Shown here piece after piece: positions 20,618-45,822 of a DNA stretch of 64,000 bases. Both the position numbers and the translations under genes were made by a program. The DNA comes from a virus. How positions within the stretch are numbered: the stretch's first letter is position 1; the number at the start of each line of letters is the position of its first letter. The notes under the pieces were generated by a model, which was given only the letters and a program-made list of their open reading frames with translations, was not told the origin of the DNA and ran no database searches. The stretch lies in the IMG/VR virus record IMGVR_UViG_3300020455_000616. One strand, 5' to 3'.

Positions 20618-21076
20618 CTATTTAGAGAAGCTTAATGTAATTCTTGGATTACTTGCTATAGGGTTATGCCATGTTCCTTTATGAATACGAAGACTATCTC
20701 CAGGTTCTAGAGTTACAGTCTCTATCTCCCCAACTTCATATGGTGTTCCAATATCAAGTTCATATGTTATCGTACCATATGATTGAACAATCAAAACTTC
20801 TACAGGATCTTGATGTCTACCATAGGTTACAGACTTCTCTCCAAAAGAATAATATATGTGTAGTGTAGGTACATCATATGTCTGATTAACATAATCTCTT
20901 ACCTCACTAATAGTTCCAGGATAAAACTCACTAAAACAAATAAAAGTTGGCAATGTAGTCTCATCATACAATGCCGTTAAAGTATTATACTTATGCTCTT
21001 CACAAGTTTTTATTATAACATCTTCCCATGATACCATGTCGGATTTTGGGAATTCGTTTCTAGTTAAAGTATACAT
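20618..21076 (-). CDS. cupin/JmjC-like 2OG oxygenase
   Basis: YGRHQD, LEPGDSLRIHKGTWHNP, RITLSF. Confidence 0.8.
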   Translation of the reverse strand: MYTLTRNEFPKSDMVSWEDVIIKTCEEHKYNTLTALYDETTLPTFICFSEFYPGTISEVRDYVNQTYDVPTLHIYYSFGEKSVTYGRHQDPVEVLIVQSYGTITYELDIGTPYEVGEIETVTLEPGDSLRIHKGTWHNPIASNPRITLSFSK

Positions 21077-21693
21077 GTTGAATGTGATGGTACATAATCA
21101 AGACACAAAAGAGTCCTAGAAGACTTCATATTATTCTCAACCCTATGTTCTGACATAGGATGGAATATATAAAACTCTTTATTCTGCATCTTCTTAGTTT
21201 CAACTTGACCAGATTCATTCCTGATTTGAATAATAGAATCATTATCATCATCAGGATCAATATCTAATCCCCATAGTATACGTAGTAATTGTACACCAGG
21301 AATATAATCAGTATCTAAATGCCAATCTAAATTCTGACCAGCATCTAAAACATTTAAAGCACATACAGATAAGATACCAATCTCATATAAGGTATCAGCA
21401 AGGGTTGGTAATACCTCTGTGTTAGATCTGTATTCATTCTCCTCCACATATAAAGGGGCAATATGCCAACCCTTCTCACTAAAATTCCTATGCTTTGCTT
21501 TAGCATAGGAGTCATAGTTTATTGGGTATCCTCTAGAATTAGTTTCAATAAATCCTTTTTGTTCTTTAGTAAAATCCTTGAACTCCAAATAGGATTCATG
21601 ATTTTTATATTCAGTATGAATAAATTCATGCCTATCATTTAATAGAGATAGTTTAGGTTCTATATCTTGATAGTCTATGAATTTAGTCATCAT
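21064..21693 (-). CDS. aspartyl/asparaginyl beta-hydroxylase-like protein
   Basis: LDAGQNLDWHLD, FHPMSEHRVEN, RTLLCLD. Confidence 0.8.
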   Translation of the reverse strand: MMTKFIDYQDIEPKLSLLNDRHEFIHTEYKNHESYLEFKDFTKEQKGFIETNSRGYPINYDSYAKAKHRNFSEKGWHIAPLYVEENEYRSNTEVLPTLADTLYEIGILSVCALNVLDAGQNLDWHLDTDYIPGVQLLRILWGLDIDPDDDNDSIIQIRNESGQVETKKMQNKEFYIFHPMSEHRVENNMKSSRTLLCLDYVPSHSTCIL

Positions 21694-22302: not shown

Positions 22303-22713
22303 TCATAGATCCCCTTCTTTACGATTTTCTGATTTATGTACATCAAACTCTCCACCAGGATATCTAGATTTAAGTTTGTCTACATTCATCTCAATAATTT
22401 CATTAAAGTTAGTATTTAGTGCCATGCAAGCTTGAGCAAGATACCAACAAATATCTCCCAACTCTCTCTTCATATGGAAGACATTCTCTTCACTATAAGG
22501 TTTACCTTGGAAGATAATTTTTTTAACAACTTCAGTAAACTCTCCAGACTCAGCAGATAATCCAACAGCAGCAGTAAGGAGACGTTCAATATTAGCACTT
22601 TTACCATTCAATTCTTGAAGTCTATAAATGAATGCATCAAAGTCTTGTGATGGAGAACTTGTTACACCATCTACAAATTGAGCATATCTATCAAAATCAA
22701 TTTCTTTTGTCAT
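22303..22713 (-). CDS. mazG: MazG-like nucleotide pyrophosphohydrolase
   Basis: GLSAESGEFTEVVKK, KRELGDICWY, KLKSRYP. Confidence 0.92.
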   Translation of the reverse strand: MTKEIDFDRYAQFVDGVTSSPSQDFDAFIYRLQELNGKSANIERLLTAAVGLSAESGEFTEVVKKIIFQGKPYSEENVFHMKRELGDICWYLAQACMALNTNFNEIIEMNVDKLKSRYPGGEFDVHKSENRKEGDL

Positions 22714-23936
22714 CTAGTATTACCGTAATGAATAACCTTTAAAGTATCTGAACTAAACTTCCTCCAAGGATCAACAACTATACTACCTTCTGGAATCTCA
22801 CAATATAGTTCATCACTATCTGGATTGTCCCAATATCGGTAGGTTGTCGTTGCACTATGAGCAAGTAAAAACACAGCAGGTTTGTTGCTATCATACGTGT
22901 CTCCAGTGCATTTGTCAACGTAAGATACAGAAATATTCTCTGTGTACGGTGCTGCTACTTCTTTACAAAAATGACCAACTAATAAACTATAACTTCCTTC
23001 CGTATATGATACTCTTGGTTTATATGCTTTACCATGAATTACAATAGGCATATTATTATCCCATGCAAGTTCAACTAATTTTAATGCCATGTTCCTTGCT
23101 TGCTCTTCTCTAGATAACATAATACCGTTAAAGAAATCATATCCAAGTCTTAACTTCTTTGCTAAAAATCTAAGAGCAATATTATCTCTAGGATGACAAG
23201 CACCACCATCACCCATACCTGCCTTCATATAAGAAGAATTTATAATCCTAGTTCCTGCTTTACACAAAGCACCAGTTACAACATCAACATTGATATTCCC
23301 TTGCCTCTCAGCAACATCTTGAATCATGTTAACAAAACTAATCTTATTACTAATAAAGGTATTGTAAAAAACTTTTATACATTCACATTCATCCCATGTG
23401 CCAACAATATATGGGGGATCATTCTGTGCAATAGATTTATAAAGTTGAATCAACTCTTTAGCATCACCAGTCTCAGTACCATCTTCAGTACCAATCATTA
23501 CTATCTCTGGATTTGTAAAATCAAATGCAACAGTACCCATAGCAATTAGATAAGGATTATAAACAAACCTACCCTTCATTGGTGTAAATCTTTCTCTTGT
23601 AGTACCAGGTAAAACTGTAGAGATTAAAACAATTAATTGATTATCTACGTACTTATTAACTTCATCTAATACACTCTCAACAATACTATAATTAAAATCT
23701 TTTGGTTCCAAATTCATACATGGTTGACTACCATCATACTCCTTATCATGTGGTGTAGGAACAGCAATAAAAATTATTTGAGATTTACTTACAACATCTT
23801 TAATTGAAGATTGAATGTCTACTAAAGATGTATCTCTAGGTTCAACATCATAACCAAATACAAAATGACCTGCCTTAGCAATCTCCTCAGCACAAGGCAT
23901 GCCAAGTTTACCAAGACCAATAAAACCTATATTCAT
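22710..23936 (-). CDS. ugd: UDP-glucose/GDP-mannose 6-dehydrogenase family
   Basis: GFIGLGKLG Rossmann motif, FIAVPTP, KVFYNTF, GGACHPRD catalytic Cys. Confidence 0.9.
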   Translation of the reverse strand: MNIGFIGLGKLGMPCAEEIAKAGHFVFGYDVEPRDTSLVDIQSSIKDVVSKSQIIFIAVPTPHDKEYDGSQPCMNLEPKDFNYSIVESVLDEVNKYVDNQLIVLISTVLPGTTRERFTPMKGRFVYNPYLIAMGTVAFDFTNPEIVMIGTEDGTETGDAKELIQLYKSIAQNDPPYIVGTWDECECIKVFYNTFISNKISFVNMIQDVAERQGNINVDVVTGALCKAGTRIINSSYMKAGMGDGGACHPRDNIALRFLAKKLRLGYDFFNGIMLSREEQARNMALKLVELAWDNNMPIVIHGKAYKPRVSYTEGSYSLLVGHFCKEVAAPYTENISVSYVDKCTGDTYDSNKPAVFLLAHSATTTYRYWDNPDSDELYCEIPEGSIVVDPWRKFSSDTLKVIHYGNTR

Positions 23937-24943
23937 TCTCGCTCCAAATCAAGAGTTACACAATGGAATCCACCACTCAAAGTTCTTTGTTGTCTCATTG
24001 GTAACATTGCACATTCTATAGCATGACTCTCAAGTAACTTCCTAGTTGGTTCTTGATTCTCTTCAAGAGCAACTAAGTTTGGATTGATACTAAAAAGATT
24101 CATATTAGTCCACACTGACATATTATTATATCCATTATATGATCCAATATCAACTGCCTCTGGTGCATAGATAACATCCCATTTTTTAAATGGACCTGGC
24201 AACTGATCTTTATCTTTTAATCTAGAAGGATTTGCAAGTATAAGTCCTTCTCTCAAAAATACTAACGTAGTATCAATATGAGAGTATGAATAAACATCTC
24301 TGAGTAAATGAACATCTGCATCACATCCTGCGTCATGTAATTGTTGTTGCAATAACTCAGCACCTAATACATTACCACTATTAGATACTAAGTAGATAAT
24401 ATTATTATCTGCTCTAAGAGTATTAGCAGCATCAAATGCTGGAGTAACTTCATTCAATGCTAAGACATCTGGATTACCAATACAATCCTCATTATATAAT
24501 TCCTCAATATAAGAACAAGGTATCTCTACAGTCTCTGGTAGACAATGCTTCATTGCTCTCCAGTTACCTCTTCTAGATCTTAAAGGCATAGGAGTTGCTA
24601 AAGATAAATTCCTATGGACAAAAACACAATCTCTAGGACAGTAATTATAATATGTTGTTGGTTCTCTTTTTGGACGTACTACCTCTACACCTTCACCCTC
24701 TAAGAACTTAACAAAAACTTCTAAGTCCTCATTCGCTTCATCAATAACTTGTTCAGGAAATGCTCCAACTTTTATAGGTAGATACTCTTCATCACCATAA
24801 CCAAATAACTTCTTCTTTGGTTTAACACCAGCATAGTTAATAGTACGAGAAGACGTATCAACTGGTGGCATAACTGCATGGTCAGCAACACCAACTATAA
24901 CCTTCTTTAATTTTCCCCATTCATTAGAAGCAAGCATTGTCAT
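23933..24943 (-). CDS. amidinotransferase (glycine/inosamine-phosphate amidinotransferase family)
   Basis: SNEWGKLKKVIVG, CPRD, HIDTT, GGFHCVTLD with Asp-His-Cys triad. Confidence 0.9.
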   Translation of the reverse strand: MTMLASNEWGKLKKVIVGVADHAVMPPVDTSSRTINYAGVKPKKKLFGYGDEEYLPIKVGAFPEQVIDEANEDLEVFVKFLEGEGVEVVRPKREPTTYYNYCPRDCVFVHRNLSLATPMPLRSRRGNWRAMKHCLPETVEIPCSYIEELYNEDCIGNPDVLALNEVTPAFDAANTLRADNNIIYLVSNSGNVLGAELLQQQLHDAGCDADVHLLRDVYSYSHIDTTLVFLREGLILANPSRLKDKDQLPGPFKKWDVIYAPEAVDIGSYNGYNNMSVWTNMNLFSINPNLVALEENQEPTRKLLESHAIECAMLPMRQQRTLSGGFHCVTLDLERE

Positions 24944-25743
24944 AACGTAGAGATTACCATTTTGTGATCATTTTCTTTTCCATAGGTAAAGAACTCATCT
25001 AAACTAAATTTTTTATGTTCCTTCGCCCACCAATGATAATAAGCATTCCTAGACTTAGTATGGTGTATTCTGTTTATTGTAACACTATTTTCTCCACTTG
25101 TCAGTTTATCGTTAGTAGTAATTAGTGGAATAGAATATGTACGACCAGTATGACCTATAAAATAATCAACTGTAGCAGCAGTATTATTAAATTTACTATC
25201 ACCTATCTTACCTAAAAATCTCCACTTATCACCAGATGAATGAAGGTCTAATATCTTCTCAACATAATCTCTTTGTAAGATAACAGGTCCAAAATAACTA
25301 TGATTTAATTTTGGATGTAAAAAGAATGGTATAAACTTTGTGGACTCAAATCCAATTTGAAGACAGTCCCAATCATAAGGAACTCTATTCATCAAATAGT
25401 CCCAATTAAAATTCCAATATTGAATAAGATTTAAATCATAATCATCTTCCATTAAACACAAGAAAGGATCAGTTGATGTACTCAACCAATCCTTCATAAA
25501 CTCTAGATGTGTAATAGCATTACCAACAACATAGACTGGAAGATTTTTACACTTACCATCTATTTTATGAGACCAATCTTTTACTTTAGATTCTGCATAC
25601 TTACTTGAAGACACCCTAGTATATTCCAACCTCCATTGTTGGAATTGATCTTCCATATAAATTCTCCTATCTTTTCTATTATCAAGATTAACGTAATAGA
25701 TATGTGGAAAATTTCTTAATCGTCCTTTATCATACTCAAGCAT
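24940..25743 (-). CDS. GT25-like glycosyltransferase, copy 6
   Basis: IYYVNLDNRKDRR, LMEDDY, PYDWDCLQIG. Confidence 0.8.
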   Translation of the reverse strand: MLEYDKGRLRNFPHIYYVNLDNRKDRRIYMEDQFQQWRLEYTRVSSSKYAESKVKDWSHKIDGKCKNLPVYVVGNAITHLEFMKDWLSTSTDPFLCLMEDDYDLNLIQYWNFNWDYLMNRVPYDWDCLQIGFESTKFIPFFLHPKLNHSYFGPVILQRDYVEKILDLHSSGDKWRFLGKIGDSKFNNTAATVDYFIGHTGRTYSIPLITTNDKLTSGENSVTINRIHHTKSRNAYYHWWAKEHKKFSLDEFFTYGKENDHKMVISTL

Positions 25744-26554
25744 AATAATTCATGGTCTTCCTAACCATACTAATATCATTACCTTTACCATAAGTAAAGA
25801 TCTCATCTAATGAATACTTCCTAGCATCATTAGACCACCAATCATGATATGCTATTTTACATGCTCTAACCATTTTAAACTTCTTACTTTCTCTAGGATA
25901 AAACTTTGGATCACTAGGGAATAAAGGAATACAATAAGTCTTACCATTATGACCTATAAAATAATCAATCGTTCCTGACTTTAATCCAAAATTTAAATTA
26001 GCAATATTACCAGTTAAATCATACTTATCTTCTTTACAATGTAACCTAACAAGTTTTTTAACATACCTTCTATTCAGCAATGAAGGACCAAAGGTGCTTG
26101 CTGGCATTATTTGATGTAGATAAAAAGGAATATAATGTACATTCTCAAATCCAAATTGAAAGCAATCCCAATCATATGGAAGTCTTGTCATCATATACTT
26201 CCAATCAAAATCCCAATTATATTGTAGAGTAGTTGAACAAAGATCAAAGTCAACAGTATCTCTCATGATAACCAATTGATTATCATCAGTTGTGTTTAAC
26301 CAATCTTTTAAGAATTCAAGAACAGTTATAGAATAACCAGCAACACCAACAGGAAGTTTATAGTTATTCTTATTTGAAAGCAGATGCTTCCACTCACTAA
26401 CATTCTCTTGCGTATACTTAGATGTGCTTATTCTATCATAGTCAATATCTAAATTACTTAGACACCGATCCATATGTTCATTTTTAAAATCATCAGAATC
26501 TTTATTAAAATAATAGACTCTGGGAATACCAAATAACTTATCCTTTAATTCCAT
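25736..26554 (-). CDS. GT25-like glycosyltransferase, copy 5 (degenerate EDD)
   Basis: VYYFNKD, IMRDTV in place of MEDD, PYDWDCFQFG. Confidence 0.7.
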   Translation of the reverse strand: MELKDKLFGIPRVYYFNKDSDDFKNEHMDRCLSNLDIDYDRISTSKYTQENVSEWKHLLSNKNNYKLPVGVAGYSITVLEFLKDWLNTTDDNQLVIMRDTVDFDLCSTTLQYNWDFDWKYMMTRLPYDWDCFQFGFENVHYIPFYLHQIMPASTFGPSLLNRRYVKKLVRLHCKEDKYDLTGNIANLNFGLKSGTIDYFIGHNGKTYCIPLFPSDPKFYPRESKKFKMVRACKIAYHDWWSNDARKYSLDEIFTYGKGNDISMVRKTMNYYA

Positions 26555-27515
26555 GATTGTCCATCACCGCTCCATTTTCATAGAGAAAATCTCTTCTCTC
26601 TTGTTCAGCTTTATCTAAAAAATATTTATCACTCCACTGAGAGATATCTCTCTGCATAAGAATATCAGTATCTTTACCATAAGTGAAAAATTCATCAATA
26701 GTAAAATTATCTCTATCCTGAGTCCACCACTCAACATATGCTTTATAACATTTTAAAAAACTAGGTCTTGGTTGCCAAGAACCATCACTCTTACCACCAT
26801 GATCACTGACTCCAGAGAAGTATGGAACTATAGGTATCATAGGAATAGAATAACAATTACCAGACTGTGCTATAAAATAATCAGGTGATCCTGAAGTCTG
26901 ATCATAACTCATTCCATCATGTATTCCAGAATCTCTATTCATATACACAGAGTTGGCAATAGTATAATCAAACTTATACTTACCATTAATGTAATGCAGA
27001 TCTAATAATTTCTCAGCGTAATGCCTACTCATTAAAGTTGCACCTAAAGAATACTCAGGTCTAGTTGGATGCAAATAAAATGGAACTACATCTGGAGACT
27101 CAAAACCTAACTGAATACTATCCCATCCATATGGCAATCTCTCCATCATATACTCCCAACTAAAATGCCAGAAGTCTTGAAGTCTCAACTCATAATCATC
27201 TTCCATTAAAATGATATAAGGTTCACCAGTACCTTTAGTATCCTCCAACCATTTACGTAGAAGATCTAATAATTGAGATGAATACCAATTAATTATTATA
27301 GAACTTTTATCACAATAATCTCCAACTAACTTCTTATGAAAATCATTAGGCATCTCTCTAATAGGAGGTTGTTCTATCCTAGTAAATCTAATACCTTGAA
27401 CTCTCATATTATATTCCATCCAATGCTTTCTACCAGTTTCACCCCTCACATTGGTATACAATACATGTGGCATGTGCTTTAATTTATCAGCAAAAGCAAA
27501 TTTCTTAACAGTCAT
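26538..27515 (-). CDS. GT25-like glycosyltransferase, copy 4
   Basis: VLYTNV, LMEDDY, PYGWDSIQLG. Confidence 0.75.
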   Translation of the reverse strand: MTVKKFAFADKLKHMPHVLYTNVRGETGRKHWMEYNMRVQGIRFTRIEQPPIREMPNDFHKKLVGDYCDKSSIIINWYSSQLLDLLRKWLEDTKGTGEPYIILMEDDYELRLQDFWHFSWEYMMERLPYGWDSIQLGFESPDVVPFYLHPTRPEYSLGATLMSRHYAEKLLDLHYINGKYKFDYTIANSVYMNRDSGIHDGMSYDQTSGSPDYFIAQSGNCYSIPMIPIVPYFSGVSDHGGKSDGSWQPRPSFLKCYKAYVEWWTQDRDNFTIDEFFTYGKDTDILMQRDISQWSDKYFLDKAEQERRDFLYENGAVMDNHGIKG

Positions 27516-28417
27516 TTTGTCCTGTAACGGTTTAAATATGGTTCCCCGTAAAGTTTATACATTTCACCACTTATATCATAATGCAAAAACTTGTCTGTGT
27601 CTAGTGTCATCTTAGAATCTATAGCATTTCCATAAGTAAAAAAATCATCTAAGGTAAACCTATCTCTCTCATGTGTCCACCAAAAATAATAAGCATTCCT
27701 TGCTTTCAAATCTCCACCATCACGATAATAACTTTGAATTAAACTATTATCCTCAAAACTACCAAAACTTGTATTAATTGATATTAATGGTATGCAATAT
27801 GTTCTACCAGGATGAACCATAAAATAATCTACAGTTCCAGATCCAGCAACTGCTTCACCAGAATTCCAAGCAGCATTAGCAACAGTATTTAATAATGTAT
27901 ATCTATCCCCATCACAATGAAGACTCATAAGTTTTTCAACATATTCTCTATGGATTAAAATTGGTCCAAAATCATGTGCAGATTGTATGGGATGAAGATA
28001 CATTGGCAAACCTTCTGGATTCTCAAACCCCATATGAAGACAGTCCCAATCATAGGGAAGTCTCTCCATTAAATAATCCCAATCAAAATGCCACCTTGAT
28101 ATAAGACTTAGATCATAATCATCTTCCATTAATATTAGATGTGGTTCATCAGTCTCGTTATACCACTTCTTTAAAAACTCAAGATGTGATATTGCATTAG
28201 CAGCAATAGCAGGTAACAAAGTATATTCATCAAAATCCACAATCAAATGATTCCATTCATCTATCTTAGATCCCAAATACTTTGTGCCAGATAATCTACT
28301 ATACTCAATACCAAAATTATCAAACTGTCTCTCCATATACTTCCTTCTATCTGTTCTATTATCCAGATTAAAGTAATATACCTTTGGCATACTTTTTAAT
28401 TTATTATCTAAATCCAT
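27512..28417 (-). CDS. GT25-like glycosyltransferase, copy 3
   Basis: VYYFNLDNRTDRR, LMEDDY, PYDWDCLHMG. Confidence 0.8.
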   Translation of the reverse strand: MDLDNKLKSMPKVYYFNLDNRTDRRKYMERQFDNFGIEYSRLSGTKYLGSKIDEWNHLIVDFDEYTLLPAIAANAISHLEFLKKWYNETDEPHLILMEDDYDLSLISRWHFDWDYLMERLPYDWDCLHMGFENPEGLPMYLHPIQSAHDFGPILIHREYVEKLMSLHCDGDRYTLLNTVANAAWNSGEAVAGSGTVDYFMVHPGRTYCIPLISINTSFGSFEDNSLIQSYYRDGGDLKARNAYYFWWTHERDRFTLDDFFTYGNAIDSKMTLDTDKFLHYDISGEMYKLYGEPYLNRYRTK

Positions 28418-29310
28418 AACAATATCTTTTCTCTAGTCTTATGAACATGATCTGCTCTCATATCAAATGTCACTTCCATCTCATATTCATTATCTCTACC
28501 ATAGCTGAATTGCTCATCTAAAGAATAATTACCAGCAACTTGAGACCACCAATAATCAATAGCATCTGAGGATAATTTATCTCTACATAATCTTACATCA
28601 TATTCATTATCATACTGTAAAAAATTCTCATCCAAATTAAATAAAGGCAACAAATATGTATTACCTAAATTAAACAAAGTAGTTTCAATATTACCATAAT
28701 CATTAGCAGGAATTGATTTATCTCTACATCTATAATGAAGTTTAAATTTACCATCAGGATAATGGAATCTCTTAATCTTCTTAGCAAACAATCTACTAAT
28801 CATATAACATCTAGTAGATCTATGTTCACGTTGCCAAGGATGTAAATTCATAGGAATTTTCTGACTAGCAGAATTAACAAACAATTGAATACAATCCCAA
28901 TTGTAAGGAAGTCTTTTATATGCATACTCCCAATCAAACATCCAATAATTAGACGTATGTAATCTAACAATGTCATCCATTATAATACAGACTTCATCAT
29001 CAGTATTTTCATACCAATTAACTATTGCATCATAATTATCCAGAGTTAATGCAAGTTCATTTTCAAGTAAATATGAATGATCAAAAGACCCCGTAACAAA
29101 TCTACAAGCACCATCATCAGAATAATCATCTGATAATATATCATTCCAGTTTATAGAAGATGAATCTTTAACCTGAGTAGTATATTTCTTTTCATGTCTG
29201 ATATAATCTTTTATGCCATAATGATCAAAGTGCTCAATCATTAATTGATTTTGAGCACTATCTTGTTTAGCATTTAGATATACTATTTTTGGTAATCCTT
29301 TTAACTTCAT
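28408..29310 (-). CDS. GT25-like glycosyltransferase, copy 2 (altered EDD)
   Basis: IVYLNA, IMDDIV, PYNWDCIQL. Confidence 0.7.
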   Translation of the reverse strand: MKLKGLPKIVYLNAKQDSAQNQLMIEHFDHYGIKDYIRHEKKYTTQVKDSSSINWNDILSDDYSDDGACRFVTGSFDHSYLLENELALTLDNYDAIVNWYENTDDEVCIIMDDIVRLHTSNYWMFDWEYAYKRLPYNWDCIQLFVNSASQKIPMNLHPWQREHRSTRCYMISRLFAKKIKRFHYPDGKFKLHYRCRDKSIPANDYGNIETTLFNLGNTYLLPLFNLDENFLQYDNEYDVRLCRDKLSSDAIDYWWSQVAGNYSLDEQFSYGRDNEYEMEVTFDMRADHVHKTREKILLWI

Positions 29311-30179
29311 ATCTTCTTATCATACTGTGGTAGTTTTAATATCATTTCATTATGCACAGGAGAACCCCAACTTAAAATATCATCCGCATTAAATTTACTA
29401 CTCTGAGTTTCCCACCATTTTCTAGTACATGTTGTTGCCAGTATATCATAGATCTTATTATGATATTGAGCAACTACTTCATCATATACTTCTTCATCTT
29501 TATTTGCTTCTTGTCTATTATCTGGTCTAGTTGCAAGTCTTTGATTTAAAGCAAGAAGAGGTAATGTATATGACTTACCAACTTGATATATTAACCAGTC
29601 ATCACTACTATAACATTCTGGTGGAACAGTAACATCTCTTAGACTATTCTTCAATTTAAATGATCCATCTGGTTGAAGATGTAACTTCTTTAACTTCTCA
29701 ACAAAGTGTCTGTTAATAAGAATACATGCAGCAGATGAACTCTCACCAATCCTAGGTGATAAATGCATTCTTAGATAATCATTATGACAATAATATAGTT
29801 GTACTATATCCCAATCATACGGTAGATTATTATATAAAGTCTTCCAATCAAATGGCCAATGATCTATTAGATCCAATGCCAAGTCATCTTGTATTAGAAG
29901 CATATTTTCTGATATACCAGAATCATACCAATCAATAAATGTCCAGAACTCATTCATTACAATTGATGCATCAGATGGAGCAAGAAGCATCAAGTCTAAT
30001 TTTTTTCCCCACTCATTTATTTTACTAGTATGAAATCTATTAGCAGATACCCTAGTATAATCTGTGATATCCCACTTACTAAATTCATTCTCAAGGTGTG
30101 CCTTCCTCTCAGTTCTATGATCCATATTAAGATAATAGATGGGAGGTAGTCCCTTCAATTTATCATCAAACTTTGTCAT
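29307..30179 (-). CDS. GT25-like glycosyltransferase, copy 1
   Basis: IYYLNMDHRTERK, LIQDDL, PYDWDIVQL. Confidence 0.75.
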   Translation of the reverse strand: MTKFDDKLKGLPPIYYLNMDHRTERKAHLENEFSKWDITDYTRVSANRFHTSKINEWGKKLDLMLLAPSDASIVMNEFWTFIDWYDSGISENMLLIQDDLALDLIDHWPFDWKTLYNNLPYDWDIVQLYYCHNDYLRMHLSPRIGESSSAACILINRHFVEKLKKLHLQPDGSFKLKNSLRDVTVPPECYSSDDWLIYQVGKSYTLPLLALNQRLATRPDNRQEANKDEEVYDEVVAQYHNKIYDILATTCTRKWWETQSSKFNADDILSWGSPVHNEMILKLPQYDKKI

Positions 30180-30804
30180 GTTTAAATACTGTCAAACTTG
30201 GTAGATAAGGATAATCTAAAGAACACCATTTTAGAGTTGGTGCGTTTACTGCTGTTTGAAATTTTTCTAATCCCTCAGAAGCCTTCTCTGGTGTCATATA
30301 ATAATGATAACCCATAACATCTATATCTTGATCTCTCCAAGGTCTATAAAAATCCCTACCATCACATGACATCTTCTTTAGATAATAATGTGCTGTGGGA
30401 TTATCAGTAAGAATCATACCACCACGTCCTAATGATAAATGTTTTCTTTGTTGAAAACTTAAACAAAAATATGTATTAGGAATATAAGAATCCTTCTTCC
30501 AATAAACAGCAGCATCAATTATATTTGTCTCTTTAATATAATAAAAATCACTCCAAGTAGAATCATCCCACTTCCATTCAATACCACCTATCTTCTTCAT
30601 TATCAAAGGTACTGATAAGTAAGTATGAGTAGGAATAACAGCACGATCAAACCTCTCATATCTCATACACAATTCTATAGCATGAGTACATGAGTCAACT
30701 GCTATCGCATAAGGAGCACCATAAAAATTAGCAATAGTTTGTTCAAACTGATATACTGCTGAATCTCTTTCTACTTGATCATTCTGCGGAATTGTATAAC
30801 TCAT
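30166..30804 (-). CDS. DegT/DnrJ/EryC1/StrS-family PLP aminotransferase (compact, 212 aa)
   Basis: FEQTIANFYGAPYAIAVDSCTHA, DAA (PLP Asp), SFQQRKHLSLGRGGMI (Schiff-base Lys). Confidence 0.85.
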   Translation of the reverse strand: MSYTIPQNDQVERDSAVYQFEQTIANFYGAPYAIAVDSCTHAIELCMRYERFDRAVIPTHTYLSVPLIMKKIGGIEWKWDDSTWSDFYYIKETNIIDAAVYWKKDSYIPNTYFCLSFQQRKHLSLGRGGMILTDNPTAHYYLKKMSCDGRDFYRPWRDQDIDVMGYHYYMTPEKASEGLEKFQTAVNAPTLKWCSLDYPYLPSLTVFKHDKV

Positions 30805-31501
30805 AATCTAAAGAATAAAATTTATTAAAAGCATCCATGTCAGGTTCAATGTATCTATGGAATACCTTCTTAGCTAACATAGTACAATTTGGCACAAAAT
30901 ATTTAGAGTCTCTTAAATGACCTATATCTAGATCCTTATGTTGCCTACCTTTAAAACTTTTCAAAAAATTATTAACCTTTTCATTTAAATGATTATCTAA
31001 TTTTAATAACTTTATATTACCATTATAGTCTGTACATAGTCTTAAAAATAAATGCTGCGGAGCAGTATGCTCATCAAATACATACTTCTTATTTTGAACT
31101 TGTTTGATTACCCATTCAGTAGGTGCTTTATATCTACACATAAATTCATTAAGTCCAGAAATCCATCTACTAATAGGATCTCTAGACATTGAAAAAAATG
31201 TATATCCACTATCAACTAAAAAGTTTGCCATGTGGTCATAATCATTTGCTTTAGGAAACTTCTCAAGAGGAATAAAACTTTCTCCCTCCATTTTAAATGC
31301 TGATGTTATTGATGTACTACCACACTTATCAACATGCAAGTAAACTAATTGTCTTCTAACATCTAGATAACAATTAATAAAACCATCTCTATGAATTGCT
31401 TGATCTGGCAACCCCTTATGTAATTTAAAAGTAAAGGTAGAACAGTACTCAGGATACTCATCAACCAAATAATCAATAACAGCTTTTCTTAATTTAACCA
31501 T
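30779..31501 (-). CDS. sulfotransferase family protein
   Basis: YLHVDKCGSTSI 5'-PSB loop, RDPISRWISG 3'-PB motif, DEHTAPQ. Confidence 0.75.
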   Translation of the reverse strand: MVKLRKAVIDYLVDEYPEYCSTFTFKLHKGLPDQAIHRDGFINCYLDVRRQLVYLHVDKCGSTSITSAFKMEGESFIPLEKFPKANDYDHMANFLVDSGYTFFSMSRDPISRWISGLNEFMCRYKAPTEWVIKQVQNKKYVFDEHTAPQHLFLRLCTDYNGNIKLLKLDNHLNEKVNNFLKSFKGRQHKDLDIGHLRDSKYFVPNCTMLAKKVFHRYIEPDMDAFNKFYSLDYELYNSAE

Positions 31502-31842
31502 GGCTTAGGTACAGTCGGCATCTTCTTAACTGTATCTTGAATCAAAGGTAACATATCATTTTCAACTCTCTCTGCAATCTTATCAATAACATTAACATCT
31601 ATATCCATAAACGGTGGAATGATTCCTAAAATTCTTAATAAACCATCTACAAATAATGCTAATGCTGTAAACCCAAGTATCATACTAATAATAGTGGCAT
31701 CACGATTATGTTTTGCCATTGAAGCTTCATCAATTGCTTTTGCTTCGTCCACGGCAGACTTAATTAGGAGATCTACTTCTTTCTTTGTATAAAATCCACC
31801 TATTCCAGGTATGTCGTGTATGTCATATCTTCTTGGACTCAT
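31489..31842 (-). CDS. membrane hypothetical protein
   Basis: One TM (ISMILGFTALALFVDGLLRILG). Confidence 0.7.
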   Translation of the reverse strand: MSPRRYDIHDIPGIGGFYTKKEVDLLIKSAVDEAKAIDEASMAKHNRDATIISMILGFTALALFVDGLLRILGIIPPFMDIDVNVIDKIAERVENDMLPLIQDTVKKMPTVPKPWLN

Positions 31843-31851
31843 AAACCTCCT

Positions 31852-32151
31852 TTAGTATATTGGTGTAAGAGGATTCGTTGGGTGGTATAAAGCGTCCTCT
31901 CTTTCCCAAGAATCTATCATGTCGGGAATTTCTGATCTTGGCACATACATTGGATGATCATAAGGATCAGGTCCAATTAACTCAAAGCGAACAGCATCCA
32001 AAATTCTATTAAAAGATCTTGACATCTGACGATATCCAGATCCAACATATATTTGTCCAGCAAAAACGGATACAGTGGCTACACCCCAAAAGATGTAATA
32101 AAATTTAGACTTCACTTGGTTTCTCGCTTTAGTTATTTTTTGATTAGTCAT
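31852..32151 (-). CDS. membrane hypothetical protein
   Basis: Start moved to MTNQKI; TM FYYIFWGVATVSVFAGQIYVG. Confidence 0.7.
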   Translation of the reverse strand: MTNQKITKARNQVKSKFYYIFWGVATVSVFAGQIYVGSGYRQMSRSFNRILDAVRFELIGPDPYDHPMYVPRSEIPDMIDSWEREDALYHPTNPLTPIY

Positions 32152-32644
32152 GTGCAGTAATTTGCATAGTATATCTGTTGGTTGATCCAACGTTAGCCGC
32201 AATATGCGGAGTGTCACCTCGCCACATTATATATTCTCCCTTAGTCCAGTTTACTACAGGTTTTGTGTCAACCTCAAAGTAATGTCCTGATTCCCAATCA
32301 TTTAGGAATATTAATATTCTACAGATATTTTCTAGTTTGTCAAGATTATGTAATGACTTATACCGAGGATAAGTATCCCTATGCTCTGGCATAATAGTTC
32401 CTGGTGGCATACAATAAACAGATGAACAAGCATCTTGTAAATTATATTTACTAACAAGATGATCCTTAACATCCAGACACCACTCAGGTATTCCCCGATA
32501 TTCCTCTAATAATAATCCTGTATAGTTAACATAAAGATGTCCTATAGACTTCCATTTTTGTACAGTCTTATCACATGGGAATTGTCTTCTATCTGGGTAA
32601 TCAATCTCGGCAGGATCACCCATTAAATCTAGAGGTATATTCAA
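32144..32644 (-). CDS. 2OG-Fe(II)/AspH-like cupin oxygenase
   Basis: MPPGTIMPEHRD, WRGDTPHIAAN, RYTMQIT. Confidence 0.75.
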   Translation of the reverse strand: MNIPLDLMGDPAEIDYPDRRQFPCDKTVQKWKSIGHLYVNYTGLLLEEYRGIPEWCLDVKDHLVSKYNLQDACSSVYCMPPGTIMPEHRDTYPRYKSLHNLDKLENICRILIFLNDWESGHYFEVDTKPVVNWTKGEYIMWRGDTPHIAANVGSTNRYTMQITAHD

Positions 32645-34017
32645 AATGTAAACCCTCCAAATTTATCTTTAAATTTAGTTTCAGGAGTATCCTCTTTATC
32701 ATGACCATTATCATTTACACCTTCTTGTGCATTCTGTTCAACATCATATAATCTCATCTTGGCACGATCTATACCTACAATAAATCTCTTGAACATTGTA
32801 GGATCGTTGTAGCGATTTTTTAACTGCTTCACCATGATCTGATTCATACCTTCCAACTCTTCTGTAGAAATAAGGGCAAACATAAAGTCAGCAGTAGCAG
32901 GGAGTCCAAAAGACTCAGAGGTGTCAGTAAGGTCAACATCAGAACTACCAAACCCGCTACGAGTAGTTTGAGTGGCAGATATAATCGGAACGTTCGCCTC
33001 AACTGCGAGACCCCTAAGTTCCTCTGCGATTGCTTTGATATAGGAGTATGAGTTGACTGTTGAGTTTCCACGGTATCTTGATGACGCACAAATATTTAAG
33101 TAGTCTATGAATATTATATCAGGTTTAAATGACTTCTTCAATGCAAGTTCATTAAGCAATGCTTTAAAATGTCCTGAGTGTGCAGATGCAGTAGGATACT
33201 CTTTAATAATAAGTTGTCCCTGTGTCTTACCCATAAGATTATCAATCTTCCCTTGGAACATTAGTTTAGGGAGATCTGTTATATCTTGTATGTTGACATT
33301 AAGTAAATTAGCATCAATCCTCTCCGCAATCTTTTCCTCTGCCATTTCCATTGTAATGTAGAGAACATTTTTGCCTTGGAACAACACTGAGCTTGCCACA
33401 TGACACATGAATAAAGACTTTCCAACACCTGTGCCAGCAAGAGCAATGTTGAGAGTCTTATTCGGTACTCCACCTTTTGTAATCTTGTTAAAGTATTCAA
33501 GATCAAATGGAATTTTTTCTTCCTTCTTATGATAATACTCATATCGTTCATCAACATTACCAAAGTAATCGTGCCCTATATTATTATCGAAAGAAACAGC
33601 CAGAGCGTCAGACAAAATACTAGGAATAGCATCCCTTCCTTTCTTGTCATCTTGTCCATCTGCTATCCCTATTGATTCCATTAGTGCTAAGTATATAGCA
33701 CGTTCCCTACACCATTTCTCAGTGGAATCTAATAACCACTGTTCATCTTGAGGACTCTTTTCAAGATTACCAACTAAGATCTGAACATCTTTAAGAAGTT
33801 GTTCTGTAAGATCTTTACGATTTGATACCTCAATTAAAAGTGCTTCAACTGTTATCTGAGTATCATACTTAGATATGAATTGAACTACTTCTTCAAAAAC
33901 TAATTTTTGTCCTTGCTCTTGAAAATAATCAGGTTCAATAAAAGGAATTACCTTCCTAGAATAATCCTCATTATGTAAAAGATTCTGTAGGATAGTTACT
34001 TCTATAGTATCCATCAC
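32641..34017 (-). CDS. g41: replicative helicase (T4 gp41)
   Basis: LAGTGVGKS Walker A, FIDY Walker B, SESFGLPATAD, KNRY. Confidence 0.97.
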   Translation of the reverse strand: MMDTIEVTILQNLLHNEDYSRKVIPFIEPDYFQEQGQKLVFEEVVQFISKYDTQITVEALLIEVSNRKDLTEQLLKDVQILVGNLEKSPQDEQWLLDSTEKWCRERAIYLALMESIGIADGQDDKKGRDAIPSILSDALAVSFDNNIGHDYFGNVDERYEYYHKKEEKIPFDLEYFNKITKGGVPNKTLNIALAGTGVGKSLFMCHVASSVLFQGKNVLYITMEMAEEKIAERIDANLLNVNIQDITDLPKLMFQGKIDNLMGKTQGQLIIKEYPTASAHSGHFKALLNELALKKSFKPDIIFIDYLNICASSRYRGNSTVNSYSYIKAIAEELRGLAVEANVPIISATQTTRSGFGSSDVDLTDTSESFGLPATADFMFALISTEELEGMNQIMVKQLKNRYNDPTMFKRFIVGIDRAKMRLYDVEQNAQEGVNDNGHDKEDTPETKFKDKFGGFTF

Positions 34018-35018
34018 ATACCATAACTAAATTCTTCTTTTGCTATAACGTCTAATTTTTGTAATATATCTTCTGTAAAATACTCTTCAGGATCTTTGTA
34101 TATCGCTTTGGCATATACTTTCTTACCATTGATCTCGTATCTACCTGCTACATTTTTCCACAACCCTCCAATCTCACCAAGTTCAAGGAGACCATAGTAA
34201 CGATCTAGACCACGTTCATCGTAGTAAAGACGAATGGTTACTTCTTTGTTTTCTTTTGAGAGTCTTGATTTATGTGTCTTAGCTTTAATAAGGTTTCCAA
34301 CAACCTCGCTCTGATCCTTTTCCTTTTTTTTGCTGAGATAAATGATTGTAGACGAGGCATATTTGAGACCAGAGCCTCCTCCCATTTCTTTAGTTGGGAC
34401 ATAAGATCCGATAACATCGTAAGTGTGATTTGTGACTATAAGTGGTATTTTTGCTTGACCTAGTTTTAATGTTAGCATACGAAATGCTCCTTTGACAAGT
34501 TGAGATTTGGTCATGTCTCTAACCTGCTTATCATCTAATGCATCTCTGATTTCTTTTTCAGTAGATAACATACCCAGAGAGTCTAACACAAACATACATG
34601 GTTTGCGATCACTCTCATCCTTCTTTAAGTATATATCAACTGCTCTAAGTGCTTTACTTCTAAACTCTTCTATGGTTACTACATTCACCACTACGATTCT
34701 ATCTAAATCCACCCCACGGGACTCAAGTAATCCTTTATTAACAGCAGCTTCAGTATCGAAATAAAGACAGTAACCGTCAGGATTATTGTCCAAAAAGTTC
34801 TTGACAACTGCGAGGGAGAAGAAAGTTTTTCCAGTAGAGGACTCACCAGCAATAGCGGTAATACGACTACGAGACGCACCACCAAACACACTACCTGATA
34901 ACAAGCTATTAAAAATGAACGAACCCGTATCAATAAAAGATTCGGTGTCGTCGATGTCTTTTCCAAGTTGGGTGTACTCATCACCTATCTCCTTGACAAT
35001 CTCCTTCAAAAAATCCAT
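34014..35018 (-). CDS. uvsX: RecA-like recombinase UvsX
   Basis: GESSTGKT Walker A, LDSLG, MGGGSGLKY. Confidence 0.96.
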   Translation of the reverse strand: MDFLKEIVKEIGDEYTQLGKDIDDTESFIDTGSFIFNSLLSGSVFGGASRSRITAIAGESSTGKTFFSLAVVKNFLDNNPDGYCLYFDTEAAVNKGLLESRGVDLDRIVVVNVVTIEEFRSKALRAVDIYLKKDESDRKPCMFVLDSLGMLSTEKEIRDALDDKQVRDMTKSQLVKGAFRMLTLKLGQAKIPLIVTNHTYDVIGSYVPTKEMGGGSGLKYASSTIIYLSKKKEKDQSEVVGNLIKAKTHKSRLSKENKEVTIRLYYDERGLDRYYGLLELGEIGGLWKNVAGRYEINGKKVYAKAIYKDPEEYFTEDILQKLDVIAKEEFSYGM

Positions 35019-39365: not shown

Positions 39366-39392
39366 ATTGCGGCGAACGATATTCGTTTTTAT

Positions 39393-41565: not shown

Positions 41566-41713
41566 TAAATGACTCCATTATCGCATTAACACCTACGACT
41601 GTGGCATTTGGATTTCTTGCAAGAGCAACCTTTCTTGCTTCCTGATAATCTCTGGCATATACATCCTCATTAAAGAGTGTGCCAGCAACATACAATTGAA
41701 CTCTACATTTCAT
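41555..41713 (-). CDS. 52 aa hypothetical protein (missed by ORF track)
   Basis: MKCRVQLYVAGTLFNEDVYARDYQEARKVALARNPNATVVGVNAIMESFNED*; fills the gap exactly with overlaps at both ends. Confidence 0.75.
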   Translation of the reverse strand: MKCRVQLYVAGTLFNEDVYARDYQEARKVALARNPNATVVGVNAIMESFNED

Positions 41714-42573
41714 TTAAAGAACTCCATTAAACTACTCCTTTCATAATTTAGTAATAGTAACTCTTTACGAGTACTTTGATCACCCATGTAATCTCCTGTA
41801 GATCTCATGGTATATGTTAGTTCATATTCTGCTGCATCCCAACCAGCAAATCTATCCTTTACTAATTGAGAATTATTATATGATACTAATTGGTGAGACT
41901 CACATGCCTCACAATCTTCTGCAAATTTATCATGGTCGAATGTCTTATGCATTCCACCTTTCTTACCATATAGATTATCCTTAATATCATAAGGAGGATC
42001 TAAGTATATAAAAGAATCCATTCCATCTATCAACACCTCTTCATAAGAATAATTTGTTATAACCCAATTGGATATTAACTCTTGATATTCTGGAAGTTTT
42101 TCAATTCCTCTAACTGTAAAGTTGGAGGTACTTGCCTGAGGTGAGAAGGACGAGGACTCAGTAAGACCACTAAAACTGCACTTATTGATAATATAAAAAT
42201 TGATCGCAGTATCCAAGGCGGTAATTTCTTCTGCACTGATAGTCTCCTTTGCGTTCTTAAAAAGTTCTTTTGCTTTGTCTGGTGTATTGTGTTCCTCTTT
42301 GAGTTCTAACAATCTATCAGACATAACATCTCCAGATTCCTGAAGTTGCTGCCAAAATGTTGCTAATGGTTTGTATAAATCATTTACCCAGATAGGTAAA
42401 TTAGGATACAACTTAGTAACGTGTATAGCAAAAGACCCACCCCCAATAAAGGGTTCTCTATATTGCTCATAGGTTGCCAAGTTAGGTAGGTACTTCTCCA
42501 TCTTTATACAAGCACGAGACTTACCACCAGGATACCTTAGAGGTGTTTTAAGAGACTTCAGGGACTTATTCAT
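41710..42573 (-). CDS. dam: Dam-like DNA adenine methyltransferase (D12 class)
   Basis: LRYPGGKSR, EPFIGGG SAM motif, YLDPPY catalytic motif. Confidence 0.92.
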   Translation of the reverse strand: MNKSLKSLKTPLRYPGGKSRACIKMEKYLPNLATYEQYREPFIGGGSFAIHVTKLYPNLPIWVNDLYKPLATFWQQLQESGDVMSDRLLELKEEHNTPDKAKELFKNAKETISAEEITALDTAINFYIINKCSFSGLTESSSFSPQASTSNFTVRGIEKLPEYQELISNWVITNYSYEEVLIDGMDSFIYLDPPYDIKDNLYGKKGGMHKTFDHDKFAEDCEACESHQLVSYNNSQLVKDRFAGWDAAEYELTYTMRSTGDYMGDQSTRKELLLLNYERSSLMEFFK

Positions 42574-44780: not shown

Positions 44781-44896
44781 TTTAGAATTTCCATTATAGC
44801 ATAATAAACGAATACAAGTGATCCAAAACCACCTATACATAAAATCAATCCAAGAAATCCAAAGCAATCCAATTTAAATGGAGCATACTTTTTCAT
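44777..44896 (-). CDS. 39 aa single-TM microprotein (missed by ORF track)
   Basis: MKKYAPFKLDCFGFLGLILCIGGFGSLVFVYYAIMEILK*; ATGA overlaps at both ends. Confidence 0.65.
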   Translation of the reverse strand: MKKYAPFKLDCFGFLGLILCIGGFGSLVFVYYAIMEILK

Positions 44897-45822
44897 TTCT
44901 CAATCAATCCATCTAGAGATGGTATCTCTATTAAATCACGATAATCCTCATGTAGTTCACATCCAATGTAATCCCTACTTAATGACCTTGCTACCCTAGC
45001 AGTAGTACCAGATCCCATAAATGGATCTAATATAATATCTCCCTTTTGACTACCTGCCTTTATACATGGTTCAATAAGATCTGGTGGATACACTGCAAAG
45101 TGAGCACCTTTATAAGGTTTATTAGTTACCCTCCAAACAGATCTTTTATTCTTCTTAGCATACGATTTACTTAACCCAGTGTGAGGGGAAAGACCAGTGC
45201 CAGCATTATGATACTTACCTTTAGTACGATCTCTAGTACCCCAATCTTTTGCTGGTTCTTTGATTGCTTCATTGTCATAATAATACCTCTTGTTTTTACT
45301 TAATAGAAACAAATATTCATGGGATTTTGTACATCTATCCTTCACACTTTCTGGCATTGGATTAGGTTTATGCCATATAATATCTTGCCTTAAATACCAT
45401 CCATCTGCTCTTAATGCAAATGCTAACATCCAAGGTATTCCAATTAAATCTTTCTCTTTTAATCCTTCTAATTTATTACCTCTTTTATTGCACTTATCTG
45501 GTAGGTCTTGTTTAGTCTTGCTTACTGATTGTTTAGGATATGCCTGACCTTTACCAGGTCTATAGTTATAATAACTATCACCTATGTTAACCCATAATGT
45601 TCCATCATCTGTTAGGCAATCTCTTACCAATCCAAATACTTCAACTAAATTTTTTATGAAGTCTTCTGGTGACTGTTCCTGACCTATCTGGTTCTCTTCA
45701 CCACCATAGTCCCTAAGACCATAATAAGGCGGTGACGTTACACACATCCTCGCCTTATCTGTATATGAAGCAAACTGTTTTAACGTCTCTCTACAATCAC
45801 CATAGAGGATAGAATTTCTCAT
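44893..45822 (-). CDS. beta-class DNA methyltransferase, likely N4-cytosine
   Basis: TSPPY motif IV precedes LDPFMGSGTT motif I. Confidence 0.9.
   Translation of the reverse strand: MRNSILYGDCRETLKQFASYTDKARMCVTSPPYYGLRDYGGEENQIGQEQSPEDFIKNLVEVFGLVRDCLTDDGTLWVNIGDSYYNYRPGKGQAYPKQSVSKTKQDLPDKCNKRGNKLEGLKEKDLIGIPWMLAFALRADGWYLRQDIIWHKPNPMPESVKDRCTKSHEYLFLLSKNKRYYYDNEAIKEPAKDWGTRDRTKGKYHNAGTGLSPHTGLSKSYAKKNKRSVWRVTNKPYKGAHFAVYPPDLIEPCIKAGSQKGDIILDPFMGSGTTARVARSLSRDYIGCELHEDYRDLIEIPSLDGLIEK

Follow-up and report, generated by a model that had tools for sequence, protein, structure and literature searches.

A conserved accessory gene island of T4-like cyanomyoviruses that may build a guanidino-sugar glycan

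The virus record IMGVR_UViG_3300020455_000616 (IMG/VR) carries, on the 64,000-nucleotide stretch of DNA analysed here (the window), an island of tandem sugar-modifying genes between the replicative helicase gene gp41 and mazG. It encodes a putative L-arginine amidinotransferase, a minimal DegT-like pyridoxal phosphate (PLP) enzyme (mini-DegT), six glycosyltransferases (GTs) resembling family GT25, a sulfotransferase, a nucleoside diphosphate (NDP)-sugar dehydrogenase and a small putative oxygenase. On balance, we favour the interpretation that this conserved accessory island of T4-like cyanomyoviruses is a soluble, cytoplasmic glycan-building pathway that makes a guanidino-sugar glycan.

Parts of the island can be recognized in several described systems. 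The streptidine branch of streptomycin biosynthesis likewise pairs a DegT-family PLP enzyme (StsC) with an L-arginine:inosamine-phosphate amidinotransferase (StrB1), and the phage amidinotransferase (336 aa) aligns over its full length with the 348-aa StrB1 chain, with the Cys-His-Asp residues kept. Family scans detected neither an inositol dehydrogenase nor a kinase or phosphatase in the island, which further differs in that its aminotransferase is a 212-aa single-domain protein, a small putative 2-oxoglutarate (2OG)-type oxygenase is a third constant partner, and the pair is part of a viral array of GT-A transferases. With the enzymes of the GT25 type, namely bacterial lipooligosaccharide (LOS) beta-1,4-galactosyltransferases, human COLGALT1 and mimivirus R655, the phage GTs share a GT-A fold and an acidic E/D-D-D motif ending the central strand, but they possess a private Trp-rich C-terminal helical region and occur as 5–6 tandem, individually conserved paralogues. 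Known viral glycan pathways (mycobacteriophage virion O-glycosylation, chlorovirus, mimivirus and the P-SSM2-type ‘LPS gene clusters’, for lipopolysaccharide) similarly combine virus-encoded soluble sugar enzymes with several GTs in the cytoplasm; the cyanophage island, in contrast, does not lie beside structural genes, and those systems are not known to contain an amidinotransferase or a guanidino sugar, a literature search having returned none. Finally, and as an analogy only, the 4-amino-4-deoxy-L-arabinose (Ara4N) pathway (Ugd, ArnA, ArnB) joins a UDP-sugar 6-dehydrogenase to a DegT-family aminotransferase to produce a cationic amino sugar, and ArnB is among the structural matches of the mini-DegT; the island differs in lacking an ArnA-type decarboxylase/formyltransferase and ArnC/ArnT, and the nitrogen would in our proposal be amidinated rather than formylated.

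The closest described locus is ORF301–310 of the Synechococcus phage S-SCSM2R, the only cultured phage of the collection with the module. This locus includes GT25-like genes, a small putative 2OG oxygenase, a 195-aa ‘AHBA synthase’ that corresponds to the mini-DegT (57 % identical) and an ‘inosamine amidinotransferase’ 61 % identical to that of the window; it differs in having no sulfotransferase or dehydrogenase, in an added radical SAM enzyme and GT2, and in its genome position. The ‘AHBA synthase’, ‘inosamine amidinotransferase’ and radical SAM genes were described as antibiotic synthesis genes ‘never reported in cyanophage genomes’, and the neighbouring GTs were counted as cell-wall genes, at the level of annotation and with no experiments on them (PMC12801897). 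This was the only mention that our literature search returned, the other papers dealing with unrelated amidinotransferases. The view in a preliminary description of this DNA that no such pathway was known to have been characterized in a phage still holds as far as characterization goes, but the module is not private to this virus, given the S-SCSM2R annotation and its relatives in IMG/VR.

The genes of the locus and their immediate flanks are listed below in the order of transcription (ORF, open reading frame; PAPS, 3'-phosphoadenosine 5'-phosphosulfate).

34014–35018: uvsX, upstream flank
32641–34017: gp41, upstream flank
32144–32644, minus strand: small putative cupin/2OG-Fe(II) oxygenase, 166 aa, first conserved gene of the island
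31852–32217, minus strand: small ORF of 121 aa with one moderately hydrophobic stretch, lineage-specific insertion
31489–31842, minus strand: small ORF of 117 aa with one predicted transmembrane segment, lineage-specific insertion
30779–31501, minus strand: PAPS-type sulfotransferase, 240 aa (Pfam Sulfotransfer_2)
30166–30804, minus strand: minimal DegT-like PLP enzyme, 212 aa, large PLP-binding domain only
29307–30179, minus strand: GT_a, position 1, 290 aa, acidic motif QDD; phrog_2835 E-value 4e-33; clade support 99
28408–29310, minus strand: GT_b, position 2, 300 aa, variable acidic motif; phrog_2835 E-value 2e-30; clade support 99
27512–28417, minus strand: GT_c, position 3, 301 aa, EDDYD; phrog_2835 E-value 2e-41; clade support 99
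26538–27515, minus strand: GT_d, position 4, 325 aa, EDDYE; phrog_2835 E-value 1e-23; clade support 99
25736–26554, minus strand: GT_e, position 5, 272 aa, R/K-D-T-x-D; phrog_2835 E-value 1e-24; clade support 100
24940–25743, minus strand: GT_f, position 6, 267 aa, EDDYD; phrog_2835 E-value 5e-45
23933–24943, minus strand: StrB1-like L-arginine amidinotransferase, 336 aa, putative activity from sequence
22710–23936, minus strand: NDP-sugar 6-dehydrogenase, 408 aa, start overlapping the amidinotransferase stop
22303–22713: mazG, downstream flank

Ten of these ORFs run in series on the minus strand from 31501 to 22710, with neighbours overlapping by 4–26 nt at every junction, and the last of them also overlaps mazG. 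The preliminary description had reported ten contiguous overlapping genes lying between the gp41 block and mazG, and both statements proved accurate, as did all of the enzyme families that it had assigned, whose catalytic or cofactor residues are intact by profile, alignment and homologue conservation. The DNA of the replication block is 78 % identical to that of Prochlorococcus phage P-SSM2, in which gp41 and mazG are separated by a single gene; the island is therefore an insertion at that site, and the virus is a P-SSM2-like, T4-like cyanomyovirus that carries it as an accessory element. A nucleotide search with the island against 50,697 phage records gave zero matches.

Co-inheritance of the genes across genomes had been chosen beforehand as a test capable of overturning the proposal, and the outcome was strongly in its favour. 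Relatives of the amidinotransferase at ≥ 58 % identity were present on 189 IMG/VR contigs, 80 loci were fetched, and co-occurrence was counted in the 60 loci whose sequence reached ≥ 7 kb upstream and ≥ 1.5 kb downstream of the amidinotransferase gene. The mini-DegT was found in 59 of these 60 loci and a homologue of the small oxygenase in 57, whilst 56 contained at least one GT25-like gene and 37 contained five or more. The mini-DegT and the amidinotransferase form an invariant pair in loci down to 58 % identity, and with the small oxygenase as third partner they make up the core of the module. In what we term type A (27 well-flanked loci, with protein identity to the window down to 50–65 %), the order is gp41, small oxygenase, sulfotransferase, mini-DegT, 5–6 GTs, amidinotransferase, dehydrogenase and mazG. 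All 27 sulfotransferase-bearing loci also have the dehydrogenase and the gene order of the window, with gp41 close by in 24, and mazG lies downstream in each of the 23 type-A loci that extend far enough. Type B, which includes S-SCSM2R, has a large 2OG oxygenase, 3–4 GTs, the mini-DegT, the small oxygenase homologue, the amidinotransferase and another GT, with a carbamoyltransferase, radical SAM enzymes or a GDP-mannose 4,6-dehydratase added in some loci; in related loci, the last of these sits directly upstream of the amidinotransferase. These additions are sugar-tailoring functions. Type C retains the three core genes but no GT25-like ones; they lie amid several radical SAM genes, and a dehydrogenase is encoded on the opposite strand. 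Additionally, two type-C loci (L070, 18534–20012, and L084, 12660–13772) encode proteins with C-terminal similarity to tail-fibre or virion-structural proteins a few kb from the core genes, which faintly suggests a connection between the module and virion surface proteins.

The comparison of loci also moves the boundary of the island. Homologues of the two small inserted ORFs (31852–32217 and 31489–31842; the latter with a maximum Kyte–Doolittle 19-residue window of 2.21) are confined to the 8 nearest loci, and in more distant type-A loci the sulfotransferase directly follows the small oxygenase with no ORFs between them. Thus, the conserved island starts at 32644 rather than at 31501: the interval 22710–31501 given in the preliminary description does hold its ten genes, but it omits the conserved oxygenase gene at 32144–32644.

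The best match of the putative amidinotransferase was StrB1 (1bwd; E-value 8e-53 over residues 5–335), compared with ∼1e-24 for glycine amidinotransferase and 1e-22 to 1e-27 for SxtG, HsvA and AGAT, whilst Pfam PF02274 gave no match at an E-value of 0.01. By sequence, it is far nearer to the amino-cyclitol enzyme StrB1 than to the glycine amidinotransferases. The catalytic Cys-His-Asp residues (C328, H222 with D224, and D171) align with those of StrB1, and C102-P-R-D105, D171 (within FDAAN), H222-I-D224 and C328 (within GGFHC) are invariant in 18 homologues, which bears out the intact Asp-His-Cys noted earlier. A genome scan gave seven cellular relatives, 36–39 % identical (Streptomyces and several metagenome-assembled genomes, MAGs), none of which has a mini-DegT neighbour. 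One exception to this pattern, L095, where a 74.7-kb contig assigned to a Rhodobacteraceae MAG ends (CASIAN010000031.1), has a mini-DegT (49 %) and the start of an amidinotransferase (∼56 %), and may be a viral contig binned with the bacterium or a prophage. As such, cellular gene clusters were set aside as a guide to function.

The second core protein is a DegT-family PLP enzyme of unusual size. It matched Pfam DegT_DnrJ_EryC1 (PF01041) at 62 bits (cut-off 19.8) in two stretches; K121 aligns at the PLP lysine position of GDP-perosamine synthase, and D97, A99, S116 and K121 are invariant in 47 homologues, K121 matching the Schiff-base lysine and D97 the Asp that contacts the pyridine nitrogen in this family. 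The AlphaFold (AF2) model (mean confidence score, pLDDT, 91) is a seven-stranded PLP-binding domain, and its best Foldseek neighbours in the PDB were sugar aminotransferases, with TM-scores of 0.61–0.70 normalized to the query (TMq), comprising a metagenomic sugar transaminase, GDP-perosamine synthase, BtrR, ArnB, WbpE and PseC. Normalized to the full-length enzymes (TMt) the scores were 0.33–0.41, and the two-domain architecture of ∼360–400 aa is absent. The call of a DegT PLP aminotransferase in the preliminary description is consequently right as to family, with the Pfam score and the invariant Lys and Asp, with the correction that the protein is a 212-aa single domain. Across the fetched loci, 76 homologous ORFs were recognized, of median length 202 aa; the family comprises at least 7998 clusters (90 % identity, E-value ≤ 1e-5), and the best 120 of these span 166–216 aa, nearly all 192–216 aa, in a search not aimed at longer, fused forms. 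Since homologues are uniformly of ∼200 aa, the mini-DegT represents a conserved minimal form and not a broken gene.

Its distribution offers a clue to its role. Among the 50,697 phage records, the mini-DegT occurs solely in S-SCSM2R, two uncultured megaphages and the Flavobacterium ‘immuto’ phages. The immuto protein, 29 % identical to that of the window, is encoded between GT genes and adjoins an acetyltransferase-type gene (‘pilin glycosylation protein’) and a short-chain dehydrogenase/reductase (SDR) gene; in vB_FspM_immuto_2-6A (record 49768–64364) the glycan cluster contains a full-length WecE-type aminotransferase as well as a 214-aa mini-DegT and several GTs. A dehydratase, an aminotransferase and an N-acyltransferase are the usual gene layout for amino sugars. 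By analogy, the mini-DegT would aminate a nucleotide keto-sugar, for which the immuto context provides the best indirect support, and the comparison suggests that in the cyanophage module the amidinotransferase takes the place of the N-acyltransferase.

The third core protein, of 166 aa, is most likely a small 2OG-Fe(II) oxygenase, as judged from H88-x-D90, H147 and R157, which are invariant in 35 homologues and are candidates for the iron triad and the basic residue that would hold 2OG. Pfam Asp_Arg_Hydrox matched weakly and below threshold (E-value 0.0065), the Atlas neighbours were viral-only clusters, with PF05118 on 19 % of the members of one cluster, and a profile search for a relative of solved structure found nothing credible.

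All six GTs match phrog_2835 ‘glucosyltransferase’, with E-values from 1e-23 to 5e-45. The AF2 model of GT_f (pLDDT 94.8) has a GT-A fold, and its top ten Foldseek matches in the PDB include the human collagen galactosyltransferase COLGALT1 and mimivirus R655, followed by beta-1,4-galactosyltransferases, at E-values of 1e-8 to 1e-10. Furthermore, a family profile built from 111 homologues matches R655 (E-value 1.4e-4) across the acidic motif. The six tandem GT25-like paralogues of the preliminary description were in this way corroborated by phrog_2835, fold and the R655 profile match, although Pfam GT25 remains under threshold, as set out below. A tree of 78 sequences, taken from the window and 14 loci, places every island position in its own clade with Shimodaira–Hasegawa-like support of 96–100; the duplications are therefore older than the split between these phages, and every copy has been retained. 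The slot of GT_d is optional, its clade members coming solely from six-GT loci and the gene being missing where there are five GTs. Acidic motifs are kept within orthogroups, as EDDYD in three (EDDYE in the GT_d of the window), QDD in one and (K/R)DTxD in one, with position 2 variable; the motif is degenerate in GT_e and GT_b. From these sequence patterns, an assembly line with one enzyme per linkage fits better than redundancy or decay. GT_b is the fastest-evolving paralogue, being 51 % identical to its orthologue in locus L014, compared with 79–86 % for the other paralogues, with an end branch of 0.49; it may be a specificity determinant or a pseudoenzyme.

The sulfotransferase matched Sulfotransfer_2 (PF03567) at 32.9 bits (cut-off 22), and K59-x-x-S62-T63-S64 and R107-D108-P109-x-x-R112-x-x-S115 are invariant in 15 homologues; we take these motifs, from general knowledge of the fold, to bind the 5'-phosphosulfate and 3'-phosphate of PAPS. 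No sequence relative with a solved structure was found for it. The dehydrogenase matched the Pfam domain UDPG_MGDP_dh_N (61 bits) and the central domain (55 bits) above their cut-offs, as well as phrog_9148 (E-value 2e-86). Compared with UDP-glucose dehydrogenase 2o3j, K-x-x-x-N is kept and GG-A-C-H-P-R-D aligns with GG-S-C-F-Q-K-D, the shared catalytic cysteine motif being GG-x-C-x-x-(K/R)-D. There was no Pfam match to the C-terminal UDP-binding domain PF03720, the C-terminal third being divergent, and NCBIfam TIGR03026 scored 142 bits, under its cut-off of 189.8.

Taken in sequence, these families would allow the following pathway. Oxidation of a nucleotide sugar, for which either the small oxygenase or an SDR or dehydratase from outside the island could be responsible, would give a keto sugar, and the mini-DegT would transaminate the keto sugar to an amino sugar. 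The amidinotransferase would then pass the amidino group of L-arginine to the amine, yielding a positively charged guanidino sugar and ornithine, whilst the adjacent dehydrogenase would provide a hexuronic acid. The 5–6 non-redundant GT25-like GT-A transferases would each add one residue to give a short oligosaccharide, and the sulfotransferase would sulfate the product using host PAPS. The preliminary description had likewise proposed a guanidinylated, sulfated glycan with uronate on virion proteins, host LPS or another target, and this reading is partly supported: the families and their co-inheritance agree with it, whilst the product and its attachment site are predictions. None of the ten island enzymes has a transmembrane segment, and the isoelectric points of the GTs are 5.0–7.7. 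Family scans recognized no lipid-carrier transferase, flippase, kinase or exporter in the island, nor any initiating phosphoglycosyltransferase, flippase/polymerase or ABC exporter among the ten enzymes; such genes may lie elsewhere in the phage or in the host. Because membrane segments and lipid-carrier or flippase genes are absent, we lean slightly towards a soluble acceptor, a phage or host protein, rather than a membrane lipid. Collagen-type hydroxylysine glycosylation, which the COLGALT1 and R655 fold matches might bring to mind, found no support, there being no Gly-X-Y repeats in the window or in the fetched partial-genome loci.

A number of points weigh against this pathway. The sequences show which genes are present, that their active-site and cofactor residues are kept, the predicted folds and joint inheritance in a constant order; every substrate, the step order, the product and the target are drawn from family chemistry, and no initiating transferase or acceptor gene is recognized in the island. 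The mini-DegT is without the entire C-terminal domain, so that it may perform other chemistry or require a partner, and we know of no enzyme of its size that has been shown to be active. The natural substrate of StrB1 is a phosphorylated amino-cyclitol and not a sugar nucleotide. The call of the small oxygenase comes from its HxD…H…R pattern together with a sub-threshold Pfam match, and the role given to it above is a guess. As regards the GTs, Pfam GT25 (PF01755) was below threshold for two (19.8 bits for GT_c and 18.4 bits for another, against 24), with no match for the remaining four, and the structural match of GT_f to GT25 enzymes is moderate (TMq ∼0.5). Lastly, since the viruses that carry the loci are related, the co-occurrences cannot be counted as independent.

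Of the competing explanations, the one that survives best retains the same chemistry and places the target in the host envelope, where the GTs would extend the lipid A–core or another envelope glycolipid on the inner side of the membrane, as GT25 enzymes of bacteria do, and might thereby prevent superinfection. Host-surface modification is the customary interpretation of the ‘LPS gene clusters’ in large cyanomyoviruses, and bacterial GT25 members are LPS/LOS galactosyltransferases, in keeping with the beta-1,4-galactosyltransferases among the fold matches of GT_f; the closest fold relatives of GT_f, however, also include R655 and COLGALT1, the latter a protein-modifying enzyme. Moreover, the island lies among replication genes with no late-promoter motif nearby, which fits expression before virion assembly, and the authors of the S-SCSM2R study class the neighbouring GTs as cell-wall modification genes. 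On the other hand, the island contains no lipid-carrier transferase, flippase, polymerase or ligase gene, whilst its GTs are acidic to neutral and, by a heuristic prediction, without membrane segments. We therefore consider an envelope target a possible but rather unlikely alternative to a soluble acceptor.

A second alternative is a free product of the island, an aminoglycoside-like or guanidino-cyclitol pseudo-oligosaccharide that is either secreted or intracellular, as the label ‘antibiotic synthesis genes’ implies. The best characterized relative of the amidinotransferase is StrB1, the DegT/amidinotransferase pair mirrors StsC and StrB1, and the carbamoyltransferase and radical SAM enzymes of related loci are also found in aminoglycoside clusters. 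The glycosyltransferases of aminoglycoside synthesis are, to our knowledge, GT-B enzymes, in contrast to the GT25-like GT-A enzymes of the island, and 5–6 individually conserved transferases exceed the needs of known pseudo-oligosaccharides. Although such a product was proposed for S-SCSM2R (PMC12801897), genes for an inositol dehydrogenase, a kinase, a phosphatase, an exporter and resistance are all missing from the island, and an antibiotic would be of little use to a lytic phage that is about to lyse the producer cell. Overall, a free small molecule appears improbable.

Hypermodification of the phage DNA by base glycosylation or amination, as a protection against restriction, would suit the location of the island, with the replicative helicase gene on one side and mazG on the other. 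T-even phages are a familiar example of DNA glycosylation, yet the known DNA glucosyltransferases are GT-B enzymes, whereas the GTs of the island fold like GT-A enzymes of family GT25. Neither a hydroxymethylase nor a base kinase or transglycosylase was seen among the island and window ORFs scanned, the window has two DNA methyltransferases of ordinary kinds, and a combination of six sequential transferases with a sulfotransferase and a uronate-forming dehydrogenase is unprecedented in DNA modification. A distant amidinotransferase, 23 % identical to that of the window, does occur in Campylobacter phage CP220, whose phage group carries a modified guanine. There (record 70914–81969), it lies within a run of five radical SAM genes, and the cluster continues with a sixth radical SAM gene, two GT-A-type genes and a PAP2 phosphatase, in a layout resembling type-C loci. 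Homology of this cluster to the island was rejected: in profile comparisons, neither its small ORF nor its two GTs resemble the oxygenase or GTs of the island, leaving the amidinotransferase alone as a shared gene. Thus, whilst the S-SCSM2R authors suggested that many GTs may protect DNA (PMC12801897), we regard DNA as a very improbable target here.

Equally far-fetched is a stand-alone metabolic amidinotransferase acting on host arginine (to guanidinoacetate and ornithine, redistributing nitrogen) and lying beside unrelated GTs by chance, since, even though amidinotransferases release ornithine, picocyanobacteria are nitrogen-limited and ocean viromes have been reported with viral creatine-pathway genes, the gene is almost always accompanied by those for the mini-DegT and the small oxygenase, it overlaps with its stop the beginning of the dehydrogenase gene, and its likeness to StrB1 is far above that to glycine amidinotransferases.

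Two further sugar-related genes are found elsewhere in the window.

7226–7930: phosphomannomutase (PMM), eukaryotic-type, PF03332
50980–51888: SDR epimerase/dehydratase

The preliminary description had suggested that they could supply NDP-sugar precursors to the island. Both genes are real, but a role as dedicated suppliers was rejected, as both are found in phages without the island. The PMM is rare in phages, being restricted among the cyanophages of the collection to P-TIM68, S-SSM7 and S-SSM6a, and these sole cyanophage relatives have no amidinotransferase. The SDR is common in cyanophages lacking the island, including P-SSM2, and NCBIfam does not separate epimerase from 4,6-dehydratase for it.

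Promoter motifs proved uninformative as to expression timing. The late-promoter motif TATAAATA does not occur within the island or its upstream operon, the nearest copy on the same strand being at 39390, and sigma-70-like sites in the region are below the shuffle mean. The best of these (32316–32343, minus strand; TTGACA, 16 nt, TAGAAT; 11/12) falls within the coding sequence of the small oxygenase, ∼100 nt before the 121-aa ORF, and may be due to chance. Further cupin-type oxygenase genes are present beyond mazG, DUF2997 and DUF1257, one Asp/Asn-hydroxylase-like (21064–21693) and one of the JmjC/cupin type (20618–21076). Of the two DNA methyltransferase genes of the window (41710–42573 and 44893–45822), one is Dam-type (MethyltransfD12) and the other belongs to the N6_N4_Mtase family.

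Glycan pathways encoded by viruses have been described before, and what would set this one apart is the predicted guanidino-sugar chemistry together with the core enzyme trio. We found no report in the literature of a virus-encoded glycan pathway with an amidinotransferase, and we know of no guanidino sugar in any glycan. The module poses testable questions of enzymology, namely the activity of a single-domain DegT protein of 200 aa, the role of the small oxygenase and the amidino acceptor, and experiments are feasible as the cultured phage S-SCSM2R carries a variant of it. It is, moreover, abundant and strongly conserved in phages of the ocean's dominant phototrophs, as the number of IMG/VR contigs with the amidinotransferase indicates. 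A bolder and rather doubtful extension is that the three core enzymes form a virus-specific route to guanidino sugars and that, with uronate and sulfate, a defined zwitterionic oligosaccharide is placed on the virion proteins of the phage itself. If true, this would affect how members of an abundant ocean virus group adsorb, which hosts they infect or how well they resist grazers and enzymes.

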